Part shown: positions 3,665-59,389 of the stretch, in pieces
How the letters are laid out: the number at the start of each line of letters is the position of its first letter
Numbering within the stretch: position 1 is the stretch's first letter
Virus record (IMG/VR): IMGVR_UViG_3300048912_000255
Coordinates: 1-59,389 of that record
Reading direction: 5' to 3' (one strand)
DNA from: a virus
Length of the DNA: 59,389 nt
Notes under the pieces: model-generated
Told to the model about the DNA's origin: nothing
What the model saw: the letters and a program-made list of their open reading frames with translations, nothing else
Database searches by the model: none
Program-made: the position numbers and the translations under genes

Positions 3665-4846
3665 TCACGCGTAGATGGCCGGAGTGGTGTAGGTCGCCGA
3701 GGCGGTCACCTGCACCAGGAAGCCGCCGCCTCGCTGACGGATGCCCGTGCCGAAGCCGCGCTGGTAGAAGGAGTCCACCAGCGGGTAGTCCGAGCGCGAA
3801 CCCGGGATCAGCCGGAGGCCCTGCATGTTCCCGTTGATGTGCTGGCGGAAGCCGATCGGGTTGTTCAGCGCGAAGGAACCGCCCGAGGCGAGGAAGGACA
3901 GGTAGCCCGCCGGGATGTACTCCTCCTCGACGATCTTCCAGGGCCCGTAGGTGCCGATCTGGCCCGGGACCTCACCCTGCGGCTGGTTGATCAGGCCGCC
4001 GTTCTGGGGCAGGTAGATGCCGCCGCCGTAGTTCGAGCCCGGGATGAAGTCGTACTTCGAGCCGGTCGACACCTTGAAGGTACGCGCGATGGCGCCCTCC
4101 TGCGGGTTGACCATGACGATGAGCTCGGTGCCGGACTGGTGCGGCCGGTAGCCGTGCTTGCCGAAGTCGGTCTCGACCGCGTCGAAGCTGGCGCTGGTGA
4201 GCGTCGCCGAGGAGGCCAGGGTGGTGGTGGTCGAGTAGTGAGTGTGCGAGCCGGCGAAGGTGTTGTTCTTGTAGACCGGCGGCACCTCGCCGTCACCGTT
4301 GTAGAACTTCACGACCTGGGTCGGGATGTTGTTGTCGGCGATGCCGGTGAGGTTGAGCGGGTTGAACAGCGTCTTCATGACCTTGTTGAAGACGAGGCGG
4401 TTGTCGGCCTCCAGCGCCTGGTTGGCCAGGTTGCGGATCTGGTCGCCGTTGGCGTTGGCCAGGTACATGTAGGTGAAGCGCTGGGCGAGGTCGTAGAACT
4501 TGAAGTCGTAGCCACGACCGTACCACTGGTACCCGCCGCCACCGCGCGGCTGGCCGAACTCCGAGGCCTCCTCGAAGTCCATCTGGCCCGGGACGCCGAC
4601 CTGGTCCTGGGTGTTGGTGACCGGGTAGATCAGACGCGAGATGATGGAGTCGCGCTGGGCGTTCCAGATCGTCAGCGTCCGCTGGATCTCGTCGAAGATC
4701 TGGAAGAGATCGGTGCCATCGGCCGCCTGGACCAGGATGTCGGCACGCTGGTTGTAGCCCGGCGATCCGGTGGCACCCGGGCCGTACGGGCCATCGAAGC
4801 CGATGATGGGGCCGGCGGTCAGTGCCGCGAGCAGGTTCTTCTTCAT
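3665..4846 (-). CDS. Major capsid protein
   Basis: 393-aa ORF after the scaffold and decoration-like genes; size and position are typical; followed by a GC hairpin. Confidence 0.8.
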   Translation of the reverse strand: MKKNLLAALTAGPIIGFDGPYGPGATGSPGYNQRADILVQAADGTDLFQIFDEIQRTLTIWNAQRDSIISRLIYPVTNTQDQVGVPGQMDFEEASEFGQPRGGGGYQWYGRGYDFKFYDLAQRFTYMYLANANGDQIRNLANQALEADNRLVFNKVMKTLFNPLNLTGIADNNIPTQVVKFYNGDGEVPPVYKNNTFAGSHTHYSTTTTLASSATLTSASFDAVETDFGKHGYRPHQSGTELIVMVNPQEGAIARTFKVSTGSKYDFIPGSNYGGGIYLPQNGGLINQPQGEVPGQIGTYGPWKIVEEEYIPAGYLSFLASGGSFALNNPIGFRQHINGNMQGLRLIPGSRSDYPLVDSFYQRGFGTGIRQRGGGFLVQVTASATYTTPAIYA

Positions 4847-17989: not shown

Positions 17990-17995
17990 GCCTCG

Positions 17996-18025
17996 ATAGT
18001 AGGGGGGCGGGGCGACGGATGTCAA
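17996..18025 (-). promoter_or_regulatory. Promoter TTGACA-18-TACTAT, 6 nt from the ATG
   Basis: Read on the minus strand; faces away from the iteron region. Confidence 0.6.
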
Positions 18026-18157
18026 CCGGCGCTTGATTCAGAGGGGGCTATACGTGGAAGACTTTTTGGGGAAGAGGGAACAGCGGCCGCGCAGAACGGT
18101 GGCGTGCGGTGTAAATCGCCCATATCGGATATTTCTCCCGGGGGGTTCATATGGGGC

Positions 18158-18175
18158 AAATCGGACATTGCTCCC
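18158..18175 (+). repeat. AAATCGGACATTGCTCCC motif copy
   Basis: Related copies occur in reverse orientation at 19063-19080 and 19101-19115. The CGGACAT core recurs at 22074-22084, 22184-22196 and 22439-22449. Confidence 0.7.
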
Positions 18176-18264
18176 ATCATGGGATATTAGGGGAAAATAT
18201 ACAAAGAAAGGGGATAATTGGAATAAATAGGGAAAATAGGATATCAATCGGAAATTCGCAGGGA

Positions 18265-18399
18265 AATAACAATGCATGATGAATAACAATGCATGATGCA
18301 TTGATGCAAGGGGATATGAATGGGAAATGACAATGCATCATCGATCAATGAATAGGAAATAACAATGCATCATCATGATTCGAATAACAATGCATGCGC
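18265..18399 (+). repeat. Iteron array: five copies of AAT(A/G)ACAATGCAT plus extra ATGCAT cores
   Basis: Copies at 18265-18281 and 18282-18298 (perfect tandem 17-mers AATAACAATGCATGATG), 18326-18342, 18358-18374 and 18383-18399. Embedded in GGGAAAT-type purine repeats across an AT-rich stretch. Confidence 0.85.
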
Positions 18400-18455
18400 A
18401 TGATATTGCTACCTATCACCTTCATATAACCCCCTATATAACCCCCGGATATATA

Positions 18456-18507
18456 GGGGCATATATGCCCCCGCCTATATACACCCGTTATATGCCCCCG
18501 CCTATAT
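18456..18507 (+). repeat. 16-bp perfect palindrome GGGGCATATATGCCCC plus two 19-bp direct repeats TATATGCCCCCGCCTATAT
   Basis: Palindrome at 18456-18471; direct repeats at 18462-18480 and 18489-18507 (27-bp period). Confidence 0.8.
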
Positions 18508-18645
18508 TGCCCTTGCCCATGCCCAAACACTTCGCTCCCCACCGATTGCCATGCCCCTCCCTGATCATGCCCCCTCATGCGCCCCCGCCCGCATGCCCAT
18601 GCATGACGGTGTATAAAAATAACCCCCCCATAACCCCCCGATCGC

Positions 18646-18675
18646 CTTTACACACCCCCCCGCGCATGCCATAAT
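18646..18675 (+). promoter_or_regulatory. Promoter TTTACA-18-CATAAT, 6 nt from the ATG
   Basis: Read on the plus strand; same -10 to ATG geometry as the minus-strand leaderless units. Confidence 0.55.
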
Positions 18676-18681
18676 TAAGGC

Positions 18682-18909
18682 ATGAACAACGACAACATCG
18701 ACGCCGATGCCGCGATCATCACCCCCGCCCTCGATGACTTCCTCGCCCTCATGATCAACCACACCGACGCCCGCGCCTTCGCGATCGACCCCATGCGCGC
18801 CCAACTGATCCTCGACGAACTCCCCGACTGCGCCCTGCGCGATGCCCTGCGCGATGCCTTCCGCGACAACATCGACGCCGACGACGACCTCGACATCGCC
18901 CTTTACTGA
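18682..18909 (+). CDS. Hypothetical acidic protein (75 aa, MNNDNID...), apparently leaderless
   Basis: ORF track plus the promoter geometry. It opens with ATGAACAACGAC, like the genes starting at 20916 and 21879. Confidence 0.55.
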   Translation: MNNDNIDADAAIITPALDDFLALMINHTDARAFAIDPMRAQLILDELPDCALRDALRDAFRDNIDADDDLDIALY

Positions 18910-19062
18910 TCACGACGCCCACGATCGCGCGCATGATTCGCTCTGCGCGCGATCATCCATGCCCCCCTTACATGATCAACTTCTCACGCGATCTTGACGC
19001 GACCTCGCCATCCTGCGCTGCATCCGCGCGCCCGGGCGACAAATCGTGCTATGTCATAACGT

Positions 19063-19115
19063 GGGAGCAATGTCCGTTTTACACCGTTACCACGTACTTT
19101 GGGAGCGATGTCCGC
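19063..19115 (-). repeat. Two reverse-orientation copies of the CGGACAT(T/C)GCTCCC motif
   Basis: Plus strand reads GGGAGCAATGTCCGTTTT (19063-19080) and GGGAGCGATGTCCGC (19101-19115). Confidence 0.7.
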
Positions 19116-19149
19116 TTCCTGCCCGAGGCCGTCGCCGGGCTCCAACCGT

Positions 19150-19182
19150 CAGCAGCTACGTGACTCCAGCAGCTACGTGACT
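19150..19182 (+). repeat. Tandem 16-bp direct repeat CAGCAGCTACGTGACT x2
   Basis: Copies at 19150-19165 and 19167-19182; a partial third copy CAGCAGCTACGTA lies at 22293-22305. Confidence 0.8.
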
Positions 19183-19636
19183 TTGCGACGGAGCAGCTCC
19201 ATAGTGAGCAGGATGCGCACCGTGCCAGATCAGCGCGGCATAGTGGCGTGCGTGTGTGGCCCCCCCTCGAGCCCGTCGCCGCCTAACCATGGGCATGCAG
19301 GGCGGACGCCCCAGGGAGCGTTCTAGGCGGGTGGCAGGGGGGCCTGCATCGAATCACCCTACCTCGAGGCACCAGGCCGTTAGGGGCAGCATCAGAGCCC
19401 TCCTCGGCATGCATATGGGCCCCATCGTCACCCCTCGCCGGCAAAGGTCATCCCCCCTCGAGCCTTGGCTGCTCCACACCAACGGGCTGCAGGGCCGTTC
19501 TACGACGCCGTCGCCCTCGGAAGATAGCTGGCATTGAGCCAGGCGCGGGTAGAGCCTTCTACACCCCCTCAGGGCCCGTTCCTGGGCATACCTCGAGGTG
19601 GGGGCAGTACTCTGTAGAGTGTTAGTTGGAGCCTCA

Positions 19637-20694: not shown

Positions 20695-20724
20695 ACCTTA
20701 CCACCCCTACTGGGGCGGCGTCAA
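20695..20724 (-). promoter_or_regulatory. Promoter TTGACG-18-TAAGGT followed by ATACCTATCAAC
   Basis: Overlaps the 3' end of the 20707 gene. The leader shares a module with the 21542 promoter unit. Confidence 0.55.
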
Positions 20725-20916
20725 GGTACCCAGTTCGGGGTAGTCGCTGATCATGTCCTCGACGCACCGGCGCAGCGCCTCGATCTCCTGCTCGCGGGTG
20801 GGCGGCAACCCGCCGGGGCGGAAGTCATCGAGCTGATCAACGATGCTGTAGGCATACTCCTCGATGAAGTCCAGCATCTCGTCGTCGGTGGGGTGGCGAA
20901 GTTCGTCGTTGTTCAT
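20707..20916 (-). CDS. Hypothetical acidic protein (69 aa from MNNDEL), apparently leaderless
   Basis: The -10 box TAAGGT abuts the track ATG (20922); the second ATG at 20916 is 6 nt after the -10, matching the other units. Confidence 0.55.
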   Translation of the reverse strand: MNNDELRHPTDDEMLDFIEEYAYSIVDQLDDFRPGGLPPTREQEIEALRRCVEDMISDYPELGTLTPPQ

Positions 20917-20922
20917 ACCCAT

Positions 20923-21600: not shown

Positions 21601-21879
21601 TTATGCCGACCAGTTGGGGGACTCGATCCCCACCTTGGAGGGGTCGATGTGCCAGTACCCCCCGCAGCCGATAATCACGAAGTTTCCGATCATCACGTGA
21701 TCGGCGTCCGGCGCGTTCGTGTAGTCGCTGGGCACCTCGTCGCAGTCGAGGCATTCGATCAGGCATTCGAGGTTCTGCGCGATGGTGTGCAGGGGGGCGT
21801 TCCACACCCTGCGCAGGTATTCGATCGTGCGCGGGGTGTCGAAGGGGTGAGGGATGCGGGGCAGTTCGTCGTTGTTCAT
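21601..21879 (-). CDS. Hypothetical protein (92 aa, MNNDEL...), apparently leaderless
   Basis: ATG lies 6 nt after a TAGATT -10 box. Confidence 0.55.
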   Translation of the reverse strand: MNNDELPRIPHPFDTPRTIEYLRRVWNAPLHTIAQNLECLIECLDCDEVPSDYTNAPDADHVMIGNFVIIGCGGYWHIDPSKVGIESPNWSA

Positions 21880-21885
21880 GCCCCT

Positions 21886-21914
21886 AATCTATCTGACGTC
21901 GAGGGGGGAGTCAA
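21886..21914 (-). promoter_or_regulatory. Promoter TTGACT-17-TAGATT, 6 nt from the ATG
   Basis: Verified against ORF 21649..21930 codons; palindrome TACGACGTCGT at 21935-21945 lies upstream. Confidence 0.6.
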
Positions 21915-22073
21915 GGATACCGACCGGTAATTTCTACGACGTCGTCAGGGGCCGTATACGGCGCTTACGCTCCGAGGATAGCTAGCATCGCACGGCGCCC
22001 TGGTACGGCGCGTATGCCCCCCTACGTGGCGTCCTCAGCCCTGTTCGCATGCGATGCCCGCCCCCTCGCCGGC

Positions 22074-22196
22074 AAATCGGACATCCCGGACTTTCCACAC
22101 CATACCGCCATCTGTCGCCCATGGACGGATCTATCATGTTTTGGCGGGTTTGACGGAGATGGTAGCATTGAGGCATACGAGGCAAATGTCCGATTT
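22074..22196. repeat. CGGACAT motif copies, plus a candidate plus-strand promoter between them
   Basis: AAATCGGACAT at 22074-22084. Near-palindromic AAATGTCCGATTT at 22184-22196 lies 5 nt downstream of a possible TTGACG-18-CATACG promoter (22150-22179). Confidence 0.5.
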
Positions 22197-23082
22197 GGAC
22201 GGGATCACGTGGTATGAGGGCTCTGTCCCATCCGCGGAGGTCATCCGGATTGGTCCGCTTCCTGGTCGGCTCCATTTCCGGGGCAAAAAGCTCAGCAGCT
22301 ACGTAGTATATATGTACATACGTCCTTGGCATGAGCATGCGCACCGGCGTGTTATGTCCTCGGCCCGGATATGGTTTGATCCGCACAGGGAATTCATTAG
22401 AGGGTGCTAGACACTGTCTGCCTTTCGCCAAAGTTGTTATGTCCGTTTTGTGGTGAAGTCCAAAAAGACATGGCAAGGCAACACAATCCGGTTTACGGAC
22501 TGTTCCTTGGTGATTTCCCGGCTCGTCTCCTAGTACCCCGACTGAATCGCGGTGTGGGATGAGTCCTACGTATAGTCCCCTGACGTCATTGTTTGCCGGC
22601 AATACCAGTTTACGGACTTGACGTGGGAGATTTCCCTCCACCGTGTGTCGGTTCCCGGGAGATTTCCACCCGGCCGACGCTAGATTTTGCCACGAGATTT
22701 GGTGAGAGTTCTCCGAGTCCTCCTTGGAGTGTTCTGTAAGAGCCTAGTAGTGTGCTACAGAGTGTTCCTTGGAGCCCGAGTCTGATCCCGGGTCGCTTCC
22801 CGGCTCCGTAGGCACCTCTGGTTCACCCCAATCCGACACGAAGATGCCCCCAGAACCACGTTCTAGTAAAATGTCCCGGACCCGAGGCAGGGCAAATAGT
22901 TCAATACCTGGCCCCCGTCACCCCCTCATCAGACCCACGTGTCCGAGTCATCACCCCACCCAGCTCGCCACTGTAACCCCGTACCACTCTGTAACTGACC
23001 CCATGTCATTTCCTGTCTACCCGCGAGTGTGAATGACTGCAATCGCAATCGATCGCGTCACCCTCAAGCACACCTACAGGTA

Positions 23083-23118
23083 GGGCAGGGAAGCCCCTGA
23101 TCGGGGAGAACCCTGCCC
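23083..23118 (-). terminator. Double stem-loop GGGCAGGG...CCCTGCCC (inner CCCC/GGGG) after the 23158 gene
   Basis: 8-bp outer stem at 23083-23090 / 23111-23118; on the minus strand it is followed by TACCTGTAGGTGTGC. Confidence 0.5.
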
Positions 23119-23157
23119 CACCATAATTTCGATATGCGCGAAGTGCCCTCGAGCCTA

Positions 23158-23652
23158 TCAGCTCTCCGAGCGGCCCTCACCATCACGGGGGCAAAACTTC
23201 CAGGACGGCTGCAGGAAGATCCCACACCGAGCGCATTGCGCGGCCTCAGAGCCGGCGGTCAGTTCGCCTCCATCGAGAGCGGTCTTCAGATCCCGGGCGA
23301 TGTTCCTCAGTCGCTTGTCGACCATGGTCTTGAGGTTCAGTGCCCTCTCATCCAGCACCACGAACGTCTTCTTGTACCGCTTGCCAGTGGTCTTGGCCCC
23401 AGTCCCCCGAGACTTGCCCAGTTCGCCGGCCTCCTGCTGAGCAGCCGCAGTAGCGGATCCGCCCCCATCCGATTTCACCGCCCGCATGAACATCTCGGCG
23501 TAGGTGTGGAGGAATCCCTCGGGCAGAAAGTAGAGTACCTCCATGGACACCTGAGCATGCGGCACGCCCGCCGCAGCTCGGATCTCGGCGAGTCGGCTAC
23601 GCACCTTGTCGTCGAGAACGTCAGTACCTGCTGCAGCAAGCGGCCGCGTCAT
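23158..23652 (-). CDS. Hypothetical protein with a C-terminal zinc-ribbon-like motif (164 aa from MTRPLAAAG)
   Basis: The in-frame ATG at 23652 follows the stop of the 23673 gene; CARCGIFLQPSWKFCPRDG. Confidence 0.5.
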   Translation of the reverse strand: MTRPLAAAGTDVLDDKVRSRLAEIRAAAGVPHAQVSMEVLYFLPEGFLHTYAEMFMRAVKSDGGGSATAAAQQEAGELGKSRGTGAKTTGKRYKKTFVVLDERALNLKTMVDKRLRNIARDLKTALDGGELTAGSEAAQCARCGIFLQPSWKFCPRDGEGRSES

Positions 23653-30127: not shown

Positions 30128-30221
30128 CCCCTCGCATCATCGCTCGATCGATCGCGCATGCATCATCTCTGAGCTGTCCCCAGGTATAGCAGGTCAGGGC
30201 AGAACCAGCGATTAGGTCGAA

Positions 30222-30235
30222 TGATGCATGCATCA
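30222..30235. promoter_or_regulatory. 14-bp perfect palindrome TGATGCATGCATCA (operator-like), 36 bp upstream of the 30271 -35 box
   Basis: Verified by codon arithmetic on ORF 30033..30266. A half-site GCATGCATCAT lies at about 30156-30168. Confidence 0.6.
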
Positions 30236-30270
30236 ATTGCCATTCGATTGGGGACGCCCGGGGCAATGCC

Positions 30271-30300
30271 TTGACCCGTTGCCGGCAAATCGCCTATACT
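30271..30300 (+). promoter_or_regulatory. Promoter TTGACC-18-TATACT
   Basis: Verified against ORF 30271..30453 codons. Confidence 0.6.
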
Positions 30301-31659: not shown

Positions 31660-32367
31660 TCAGAGGTCGTCGAGCTCGAGCTCCTCGAGCTCGTCGTCGG
31701 TCACCTCGGGCCGAGAGGAGGACTTGCGCTGGGCCGGCACCGCCTTCTTGGCGACCGCGCGCTTCTTGGGCGCCAGCTCGGGCTCCTCGTCCTCCTCGTC
31801 CTCCTCCTCGGCCGAGTCCGCCTCGTCGGTGGTGTCGTCCTCGTCGTCCTCGTCCTCACCGTCCTCGGCGTCGTACTCCTCGTCGGTGTCCTCGTCCTCG
31901 GTGTCGACCAGCTCGCTCGCCGGGAAGACCGCGCCGATGTTGGACTGGGCCTTGCCGTCGTACTCGTCGTCCTCGAGCGTGATGCCGACCAGCTTGCCGA
32001 TGATGCGGGTCGGGTCGACCTTCATCTTCTTCTTGGGGACCGGGATGCCAGCGGCGATGAACAGGTTCCGCAGCTTCCAGAGCTGGTTCTCCTGCAGCTT
32101 GCAGTAGTACGGGAACTTCCGGTCGGTGTACTTCTCGGTGAGCTCGAGCGTGAAGAGCCACTGGAACTCGCGGGTCTCCTTGGTCGGCGCGTCCTTGACC
32201 GCGGTCACCTTCGCGAGGTAGTCGCCGGCAGGCACCCGCTTCTTGTTGAACGTTGCCTTCTTGTCCTCGACTCCAGAGAAGTCGATGACCTTCGTCGTGA
32301 TGGTGTCCTTGGTAGCAGTCGCCACTTGGGTAATACCTTCCTCGGTCAGCCCTGTTCTAGGGGGCAT
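31660..32367 (-). CDS. Putative ssDNA-binding protein with a long acidic C-terminal tail
   Basis: Sits next to the Sak4-like ATPase; C-terminus ...DDELEELELDDL. Start uncertain: ATG 32367 lies 9 nt after a TAGCAT box, and GTG 32325 lies 10 nt after GAGGAAGG. Confidence 0.5.
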   Translation of the reverse strand: MPPRTGLTEEGITQVATATKDTITTKVIDFSGVEDKKATFNKKRVPAGDYLAKVTAVKDAPTKETREFQWLFTLELTEKYTDRKFPYYCKLQENQLWKLRNLFIAAGIPVPKKKMKVDPTRIIGKLVGITLEDDEYDGKAQSNIGAVFPASELVDTEDEDTDEEYDAEDGEDEDDEDDTTDEADSAEEEDEEDEEPELAPKKRAVAKKAVPAQRKSSSRPEVTDDELEELELDDL

Positions 32368-46687: not shown

Positions 46688-46828
46688 CATCATCGTCATC
46701 CCTGCGCTTCCCTGATCGCAAGGCTATCGCGCCCGCCTCATTCATCATGCAGCTAGTGCCCGCCCTGATAGACGCGATCCCAGCTGCTTCCAAAGCAGCT
46801 TGATGCATGATGCGATCGAGCAGGCGCG

Positions 46829-59025: not shown

Positions 59026-59340
59026 CTATTTGAACATCGAGGCCGGATCGGCAAATTGACCTCGACTGGGCTTCTCAGTATTGCCGAGGTATCGATCCAG
59101 TACTCGACTTCGCTTCTGCTCGGTCTCGTCTCGGTTCTTGCCCTCGACCTTATCCAGCTCTGCTTCAACCGTACGACCGAAGTAGCCAACCGCCTGATCC
59201 AGGCAGTAAGCTGCGTAGTCATCGGTTATCCGCAGCAAGTCACTCGGACGGCAGTTCCACGTCTTCGCGTCCACGTACAACATCCAGACTGCTGGCGTGT
59301 TCGCGACGAAACTGCTCCACGTCCGTGGTACCTCCAGTGA
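59026..59340 (-). CDS. T-frame extension of the tail assembly chaperone (expressed as a G-T fusion by a programmed frameshift)
   Basis: This frame is open from 59340 (equivalent to position 78) to the stop at 59026. It overlaps the end of the G frame for ~98 nt and lies +1 relative to G. Ends 10 nt before the tape measure ATG. Confidence 0.6.
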   Translation of the reverse strand, partial: SLEVPRTWSSFVANTPAVWMLYVDAKTWNCRPSDLLRITDDYAAYCLDQAVGYFGRTVEAELDKVEGKNRDETEQKRSRVLDRYLGNTEKPSRGQFADPASMFK

Positions 59341-59389
59341 TCACCTGGAAGAGGAACATCTTGTCCTCGTCGTCGACCTCGTCGGCGTA
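59240..59389 (-). CDS. 3' end of the gpG-like chaperone ORF (continuation of 1..478 across the junction)
   Basis: Frame continuity across the 127-bp overlap; reads ...SLDVVRGREDVELPSE then TGA at 59242..59240. Confidence 0.75.
   Translation of the reverse strand, partial: YADEVDDEDKMFLFQVITGGTTDVEQFRREHASSLDVVRGREDVELPSE
59263..59389. repeat. Terminal overlap, identical to 1-127
   Basis: Direct comparison. Confidence 0.95.

Follow-up and report, generated by a model that had tools for sequence, protein, structure and literature searches.

A repeat-dense non-coding element at the predicted inner end of a long direct terminal repeat in an uncultured phage of an actinobacterial-phage family

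The DNA considered here (hereafter the window, 59,389 nucleotides, IMG/VR record IMGVR_UViG_3300048912_000255) is an assembly of about 59.3 kb from an uncultured, high-GC, siphovirus-like phage belonging to a large family of actinobacterial phages. Of interest here is the 656-bp interval 18026-18681, a real cis-acting, non-coding field of repeated motifs that resemble protein sites. On the basis of homology and terminase lineage, and not of sequencing reads, this interval is very probably the inner junction of a long direct terminal repeat (DTR), where the repeat meets unique DNA. That it is this junction in a lytic phage of the Triscuit/Shrew type, and that its repeat arrays also serve end formation or packaging, is a combined reading to which we assign a probability of roughly 0.55. 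A preliminary description, made from the letters alone, had regarded the same stretch as a candidate replication origin or regulatory hub; its recognition of a cis-acting repeat field has stood, while the homology to the junction between a DTR and unique DNA had been overlooked.

The predicted inner end of the terminal repeat

No DNA-level match to the region was returned by megablast and blastn against deposited phages, and the comparison with cultured phages was made possible by proteins. The nearest isolates are the Microbacterium phages Huwbert (OR521080) and Triscuit (MH047631) and the Curtobacterium phage Shrew (PQ868981), whose primases are about 50% identical to that of the window and whose large terminase subunits (TerL) are 65% identical to it, the small subunit (TerS) being 46% identical to that of Huwbert. 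Uncultured relatives form more than 100 protein clusters at 52-86% primase identity, many of them on contigs of 58-61 kb. Eight of these (L003 and L123-L129, primase identity 59-82%) were compared in detail and, together with the window and the three isolates, make up the 12-sequence junction alignment used below.

The GenBank records of the isolates contain exact DTRs of 3811 bp (Huwbert), 3795 bp (Triscuit) and 4512 bp (Shrew), that of Triscuit being published (PMC7302621). Each of these DTRs has its right boundary between sequences resembling two short blocks of the window, termed block B and block A, the distance from the start of the block-B 16-mer to the end of the repeat being exactly 53 nt (3758 to 3811 in Huwbert, 3742 to 3795 in Triscuit, 4459 to 4512 in Shrew). 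The three ends, which are experimentally defined, share a single alignment column, at which the family consensus reads GAC/CAT (the slash marking the end), and beyond them stands a homologous leaderless promoter, TTGAC-N17-TATGAT-cgaagcATG. The core of block A, CCA.GT (CCACGTA in the family), is invariant in 12/12 aligned sequences, as are the -35 element, the -10 element and the ATG, and TGAACCCCCC of block B is invariant over the family and the isolates. In Huwbert and Triscuit, block A lies 41 nt outside the DTR end. When the offset shared by the isolates is carried over to the window, it places the DTR end at about 18098, with an uncertainty of 1-2 nt, so that the region would consist of the last ~580 bp of the repeat and ~70 bp of unique DNA ahead of the first promoter of the unique region. 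The features of the junction are the following:

17990-18025, minus strand: leaderless sigma-A-type promoter TTGACA-N18-TACTAT-cgaggc-ATG with its start codon (ATG at 17992)
18046-18058, minus strand: block A, GGCTATACGTGGA on the plus strand and TCCACGTATAGCC in phage orientation, outside the predicted repeat, in unique DNA
18097-18099, no strand: predicted right (inner) DTR end, from the 53-nt offset counted from 18151 (to ~18098); higher coordinates are repeat, lower ones unique
18126-18175, minus strand: block B (18136-18151; TATGAACCCCCCGGGA in phage orientation) between CGGA(C/T)AT sites at 18126-18139 and 18162-18175
18180-18264, plus strand: purine-rich GGGAAA/GGATA repeats with ~10-bp phasing (periodicity and repeat search)
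18265-18395, plus strand: five AAT(A/G)ACAATGCAT direct repeats and one inverted ATGATGCATTG (18293-18303; repeat search)
18420-18660, plus strand: C-run zone, with TATAT-GCCCCCGCC-TATAT units (a 19-bp repeat, present twice), a 16-bp palindrome and an inverted repeat with 21-nt arms

The likeness to Shrew extends beyond the blocks. The last 615 bp of the Shrew DTR are non-coding and their elements follow the order seen in the window: a zone of G-runs and TATAT units at 4020-4145, which is the complement of the C-run zone, is followed by an AT-rich zone of CAATGCATGATGAAT / TTGCATCATCAAT repeats at 4160-4400, then by block B and finally by the DTR end. The genomic position also agrees: terS follows the junction at a distance of 7.3 kb, as in Huwbert, the primase gene precedes it by 6.4 kb, and the junction stands at the place where the one-directional gene array starts and stops. 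The homology to the isolates' junction, a terminase of the DTR-packaging lineage and the genomic position have thus all been found; homology and position are established by direct comparison, from which a DTR with this boundary in the phage of the window can be inferred.

The state of the assembly bears on this point. Positions 1-127 are identical to positions 59263-59389, leaving a unique length of 59,262 bp, and this identity is the k-mer overlap of a circularised assembly. The assembly was therefore circularised and opened at an arbitrary point inside the structural module, the true ends being unrecorded. Such an end identity of 127 nt is the expectation for a collapsed DTR, and the assembly probably merged both repeat copies into the circle.

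A mechanism can be proposed in which the arrays take part in making the end. In phage orientation (minus strand), the G-run/TATAT zone comes first, followed by the AT-rich ATGCAT zone, the CGGACAT sites around block B and the predicted repeat end; beyond it, in unique DNA, stand block A and then the leaderless promoter from which the operon runs toward terS and terL. Blocks B and A would flank the site at which the concatemer receives its right-hand cut, from terminase or from an end-forming nuclease. The arrays, lying on easily bent or melted DNA, would bind the small terminase subunit or another end-binding protein, and the bound platform would position the cut in a manner resembling cosB or pacL. 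Each virion would then carry the array twice, at about 4 kb from its left end and at about 100-550 bp from its right physical end. That the arrays just inside the repeat are the platform positioning the cut between blocks B and A is put forward tentatively, at somewhat less than even odds; the window TerS gave no recognised DNA-binding domain match.

Several observations weigh against the junction and its proposed role. At the predicted cut, the window reads CAC/CGT and not GAC/CAT. Contig ends in public collections give no information on it: contigs of 64 kb do not stop at the junction and, of those measuring 55-56 kb in IMG/VR, one is closed into a circle and another is broken inside the array. 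The left boundary of the repeat is placed only tentatively, and the motif class of the array does not track the winged helix-turn-helix (wHTH) domain of the primase. Finally, in Huwbert and Triscuit the AT-rich DNA between the last DTR gene and block B is just ~135 bp long and includes a 20-nt inverted repeat, so that not every member of the family needs a long array for end formation.

The repeat field and its alternative readings

The motifs reported in the preliminary description were recovered. Five AAT(A/G)ACAATGCAT iterons start at 18265, 18282, 18326, 18358 and 18383, all on the plus strand, the first two forming a perfect 17-nt tandem at 18265-18298, and no further copy was found elsewhere in the 59 kb at up to two mismatches; at the same threshold, the expectation for the whole window is 0.57 copies, and a count of five was attained in 0/100 shuffles. 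Their start-to-start spacing is irregular (17, 44, 32 and 25 nt). Six ATGCAT cores fall between 18272 and 18395 and a seventh stands at 18599, the whole window having 14, all of them outside predicted genes. Isolated ATGATGCATGCAT / ATGCATGATG sites occur in other intergenic DNA at 30150-30240 and 46800-46815, one of them preceding a plus-strand promoter near 30272 by ~30 nt. The GGGAAA/GGAAAT purine words do cluster, at 18191-18360, and the GG dinucleotide has a 10-bp periodicity power of 0.88 against a null of 0.15 +/- 0.07; this phasing is strong in the window and in its closest relative, L123, and inconsistent over the family. Also present as reported are the AAATCGGACATTGCTCCC motif at 18159-18176, the 16-bp palindrome GGGGCATATATGCCCC at 18456-18471 and the two copies of the 19-bp direct repeat at 18462 and 18489. 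To these can be added an inverted repeat with 21-nt arms at 18423-18467 and a 14-mer, CGGACATTGCTCCC, that reappears inverted at 19063 and 19101.

In terms of composition, the GC trough noticed earlier was borne out: GC content falls to 0.30-0.44, compared with 0.62 for the genome, and includes the lowest-GC 200 bp of the window. A sharp strand-composition switch occurs at ~18400, from purine-rich on the left to C-rich on the right, where 11 runs of at least four C are found against 1.35 expected. The G-quadruplex potential of this C-run zone is unexceptional, with one canonical motif only. The non-coding nature of 18026-18681 was equally upheld, the internal open reading frames having flat GC content over the three codon positions (0.43-0.58), whereas the true genes on either side reach 0.89-0.90 at the third position (GC3). 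The frames at 18038-18301 and 18375-18674 were consequently rejected as genes, because of this flat profile and their lack of conservation. A structured non-coding RNA or a small protein gene was likewise considered and set aside, Rfam and tRNA searches of the region giving no match and no coding signature being present.

Comparison within the family separates what is conserved from what is particular to the window. Each of the eight relatives has a gene-free gap of 570-1000 bp at the syntenic position and, in window orientation, the order is common to the window and all eight: leaderless promoter, block A, block B, ATGCAT zone, C-run zone. Block B reads TCCCGGGGGGTTCATA in this orientation and is flanked by AATCGGACAT sites. 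In 7/8 relatives the low-GC, purine-rich zone has 5-9 ATGCAT sites within 450 nt of block B (7 in the window), L126 being the only relative outside this range. The C-run zone has 2-5 units of the family consensus (C)TATAT-GA-GCCCCCGG-C-ATATAT in a single orientation, and both repeat zones retain their order and orientation family-wide. As to the conservation of iterons, named earlier as a check, the ATGCAT cluster is kept, while the exact 13-mer, its flanks and its spacing are not: the 13-mer is particular to the window, two shorter copies stand in L003, and L123-L125 use GATAT(AT)GCAT(G)GG. The non-coding block of L003 matches that of the window at 72% identity, and the genes downstream of the promoter have no detectable homology between the two. 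The genes carried by the repeat have no homology to the isolates' proteins either. An IMG/VR scan for ACAATGCAT-N8-38-ACAATGCAT gave more than 118 matches, all due to chance except one relative that was already known. Among 185,579 species-representative bacterial genomes, the junction signature is confined to this phage family; its single match is probably a mis-binned contig of a metagenome-assembled genome (MAG), with no plasmid or satellite context.

These data bear first on the idea of a replication origin lying inside the repeat, which we consider rather unlikely. The ATGCAT repeats would be iterons bound by the C-terminal wHTH of the primase-helicase or by the small wHTH protein, the lowest-GC DNA would be the unwinding element, and the hairpin-forming C-run zone would offer priming sites as in the IncQ oriV, an origin made up of iterons, of GC-rich and of AT-rich segments and of ssi hairpins, and served by RepB'/RepA/RepC. 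The five direct repeats, the palindromes and the hairpin (z = -2.76) speak for such a model, as does the low GC content (0.30-0.38), which is that of an AT-rich unwinding element. This zone is the most meltable DNA of the genome and includes its lowest-GC 200 bp, a rank that the zone also has, or nearly has, in the relatives. The primase-helicase wHTH is moreover conserved in the family (recognition helix ~TYHPTYRKL) and could recognise the invariant ATGCAT core. However, this recognition helix is nearly invariant across the motif classes, without co-variation in what is a crude test, and the extended iteron of L123 differs from that of the window despite 82% primase identity. Spacing is irregular in the window and the ATGCAT sites of relatives have other flanks and spacings; no actinobacterial DnaA box (TTGTCCACA, up to two mismatches) occurs in 18000-18700; Huwbert and Triscuit keep the junction with only their short AT-rich segment; and the position of the element follows the repeat end rather than the replication genes, 6.4 kb away. 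A cumulative GC-skew plot had been suggested in the preliminary description as a check. After detrending, its extrema lie at 31,921 and 5,735, with no genome-scale inflection at the site, where a local spike at 18.4-18.5 kb results from the region's own G-to-C switch; the plot has low power here and is uninformative for an origin because the genome is transcribed almost wholly one way. The proposed origin thus gained no positive support from skew, DnaA boxes, spacing or wHTH co-variation.

The second idea, that of a transcriptional control field, appears quite improbable. Here the ATGCAT palindromes and the TATAT..GCCCCCGG..TATAT units would be operator or activator sites, or targets of host nucleoid proteins such as Lsr2, which would bind AT-rich DNA, timing the first promoter of the unique region and, in the window, a divergent gene for a 75-aa protein. 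Two consensus leaderless promoters do border the field, both being found as described earlier (18025-17996 on the minus strand, 18647-18675 on the plus strand), and ATGCAT is a palindrome fit for a dimeric helix-turn-helix (HTH) protein. Single sites of this type stand ~30-50 nt upstream of the -35 element of the plus promoter (the site at 18599) and of the plus-strand promoter near 30.27 kb, and the MerR-like genes of Huwbert and Triscuit diverge from AT-rich DTR gaps that bear inverted repeats. Against this, no DNA-binding gene adjoins the field, the neighbouring proteins, including the acidic 75-aa one, having no HTH match; the sites overlap neither promoter core, the main array lying 240-370 nt from the minus -35; and 5-9 sites far exceed what an operator needs. 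Most relatives have no divergent gene beside the array, and the divergent operator hub of the preliminary description, whose array is more than 240 nt from the minus promoter, is a reading that fits the window only.

Neighbouring genes and the left side of the repeat

Nearly all genes of the window lie on the minus strand in the map of open reading frames. The encoded proteins include a DNA polymerase of family A and a RepB-type primase joined to an AAA_25 helicase, besides an SNF2 helicase, a PD-(D/E)XK nuclease and the large terminase. The minus promoter drives the first gene of a long minus-strand operon running to terS and terL, and is homologous to the promoters of the eight relatives and the three isolates. 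It belongs to a recurring leaderless type, TTGACA-N17/18-TAnnnT-N6-ATG in the context ..(a/g)ggcATG, with further copies at 20231-20203 and ~21915-21885, both on the minus strand; the type is common to the relatives and to Huwbert, Triscuit and Shrew (..cgaagcATG). Three further features lie on the repeat side:

18647-18909, plus strand: leaderless promoter TTTACA-N17-CATAAT-taaggc-ATG (ATG at 18682) with the gene of a very acidic 75-aa protein
19030-19215, minus strand: degenerate second copy of the module of the upstream gap (21880-23157, below), with two CACGTAGCTGCTG and two CGGACAT(T/C)GCTCCC
22150-22201, minus strand: family-conserved non-coding blocks CCAAATCGGACATT (22201-22184) and CAATGCTACCATCTCCGTCA (22171-22150), candidate left boundary

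The gene of the 75-aa protein (18682-18909) is an insertion specific to the window, with a GC3 of 0.89, and is absent at this position in L003 and most relatives; its product has no Pfam or PHROG match. Other small, very acidic, leaderless proteins of the MNND... type are encoded at 20707-20922 and 21601-21879 in the window and at 16778-16993 in L003, all on the minus strand, again with no Pfam or PHROG match. Such small acidic proteins of the predicted terminal repeat could act early in host takeover or as DNA mimics. In the degenerate module, the two CACGTAGCTGCTG form a 17-nt tandem at 19150-19182 and the CGGACAT copies are inverted relative to those at 18126 and 18162; this module and the 75-aa gene jointly look like an insertion or duplication specific to the window and absent from L003.

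Toward the other side of the predicted repeat, all relatives have another gap without genes, 1.2-1.4 kb long and 2.4-4 kb upstream of block B, which corresponds to 21880-23157 (1.28 kb) in the window. The family-conserved blocks listed above lie within it, 22151-22178 being 100% identical to 15140-15167 of L003. The gap also has ACGTAGCTGCTG and GGAAATCTCCC repeats, and some relatives carry there a variable CCCC...GGGG hairpin insert. Were the block at 22.19 kb the left boundary, the repeat would measure ~4.1 kb, near the sizes seen in the isolates. This boundary is kept tentative because the blocks resemble the left end of Shrew only weakly, the likeness to Huwbert being weak too. One IMG/VR contig (L139) stops 5 nt after AAATCGGAC, which was taken as a coincidence since it alone ends in the candidate left block, other contig ends being uninformative. 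The last gene before this gap, at 23158-23652 on the minus strand, encodes a 164-aa protein whose C-terminal part has a zinc-ribbon-like motif (weak DZR match), 64% identical to its L003 homolog, and is a conserved candidate for a DNA-binding protein.

Elsewhere in the window, the only other low-GC spot (0.42) is found at 480-700, in intergenic DNA of the structural module, where a GC-rich hairpin (CAGGGGCA...GCCCTG) stands between long A/T runs and is probably a terminator. As regards hosts, L126 (GCA_053891495.1 JBSFCS010000040.1) is a 58.7 kb contig in the assembly of the isolate Streptomyces sp. NPDC002248, which hints at host range or at carriage in culture, and another family member (L136, JBDTTA010000002.1) is a 53.7 kb contig assigned to a Gemmatimonadales MAG, probably as phage DNA placed in the wrong bin.

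Significance and comparison with known systems

Repeat-dense non-coding DNA at the boundary of a terminal repeat is a known kind of feature; for this particular element no description was found in the searchable literature, and the Huwbert, Triscuit and Shrew records leave it unannotated. The way in which the boundaries of multi-kilobase DTRs are marked and cut is poorly understood beyond T7 and T5, and unstudied in actinobacteriophages. The comparison yields a sequence-level model, in which a pair of blocks brackets the cut at a fixed 53-nt offset with two conserved repeat zones before it, and which spans three culturable phages and more than 100 protein clusters of uncultured relatives of ~59 kb. 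It can be tested in the tractable hosts Microbacterium and Curtobacterium, and would render the genome ends of the metagenomic members of the family predictable. It also calls for caution, as AT-rich repeat fields in collapsed circular assemblies should not be read as origins. A broader version, unlikely in our view, would make the composite a family-wide "terminal-repeat ruler" that sets the DTR end and has a second task, either a T5-like entry pause or an end-proximal origin duplicated at both ends; if true, this second role would be the first of its kind for phages of Gram-positive actinobacteria.

Among known systems, the iteron-type origins (lambda ori, the IncQ/RSF1010 oriV, P4 ori/crr) have direct repeats beside the most AT-rich DNA of the replicon. 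The window resembles them by its repeats next to AT-rich DNA and by a phage-encoded RepB'-type primase fused to a RepA-type helicase with a C-terminal wHTH, and differs by the irregular spacing, the absence of DnaA boxes, of a skew signal and of co-variation with an initiator, and a position tied to the repeat end. In lambda cosB (R-sites and an IHF site) and SPP1 pacL/pacR, several short repeated sites, irregularly spaced on AT-rich or bent DNA, lie within a few hundred bp of a conserved cleavage site. The likeness of the window to these is one of sequence layout, whereas they belong to cos or headful packaging and not to long DTRs.

Another parallel is provided by phage T5, whose injection-stop (iss) region occupies the inner end of the left-hand terminal repeat, continues into unique DNA, and has an order that is conserved while the adjacent coding DNA is not (bioRxiv 10.1101/866236). 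Like the window, T5 iss/Repeat Region 3 is a large untranslated stretch, dense in repeats and palindromes, that spills into unique DNA; it differs in that its hosts are Gram-negative and its two-step DNA transfer is demonstrated. By analogy, the repeat- and palindrome-rich untranslated DNA of the window might pause DNA entry so that the small early genes of the repeat are expressed first. Position, composition and pattern of conservation match the T5 region, a match that depends on the homology-based placement of the DTR, and the predicted repeat holds small genes with strong leaderless promoters of the host type. Yet there is no homology to T5, the paired DnaA boxes of T5 were not found in 18000-18700, two-step transfer is known only in T5-like phages of Gram-negative hosts, and no A1/A2-like function is annotated, no search having been aimed at such genes; we therefore hold an injection stop to be very improbable.

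The closest counterparts of the proposed junction are those of Shrew, Huwbert and Triscuit, with homologous block B, block A and leaderless promoter. The isolates differ from the window in having no DNA-level similarity outside the blocks and unrelated flanking genes, the termini of the window's phage being predicted by homology. Where the window has a long array, Huwbert and Triscuit have only a brief AT-rich segment that includes a 20-nt inverted repeat, while Shrew, like the window, has its G-run/TATAT zone and an array of the CAATGCATGATGAAT type in the last ~500 bp of the DTR.

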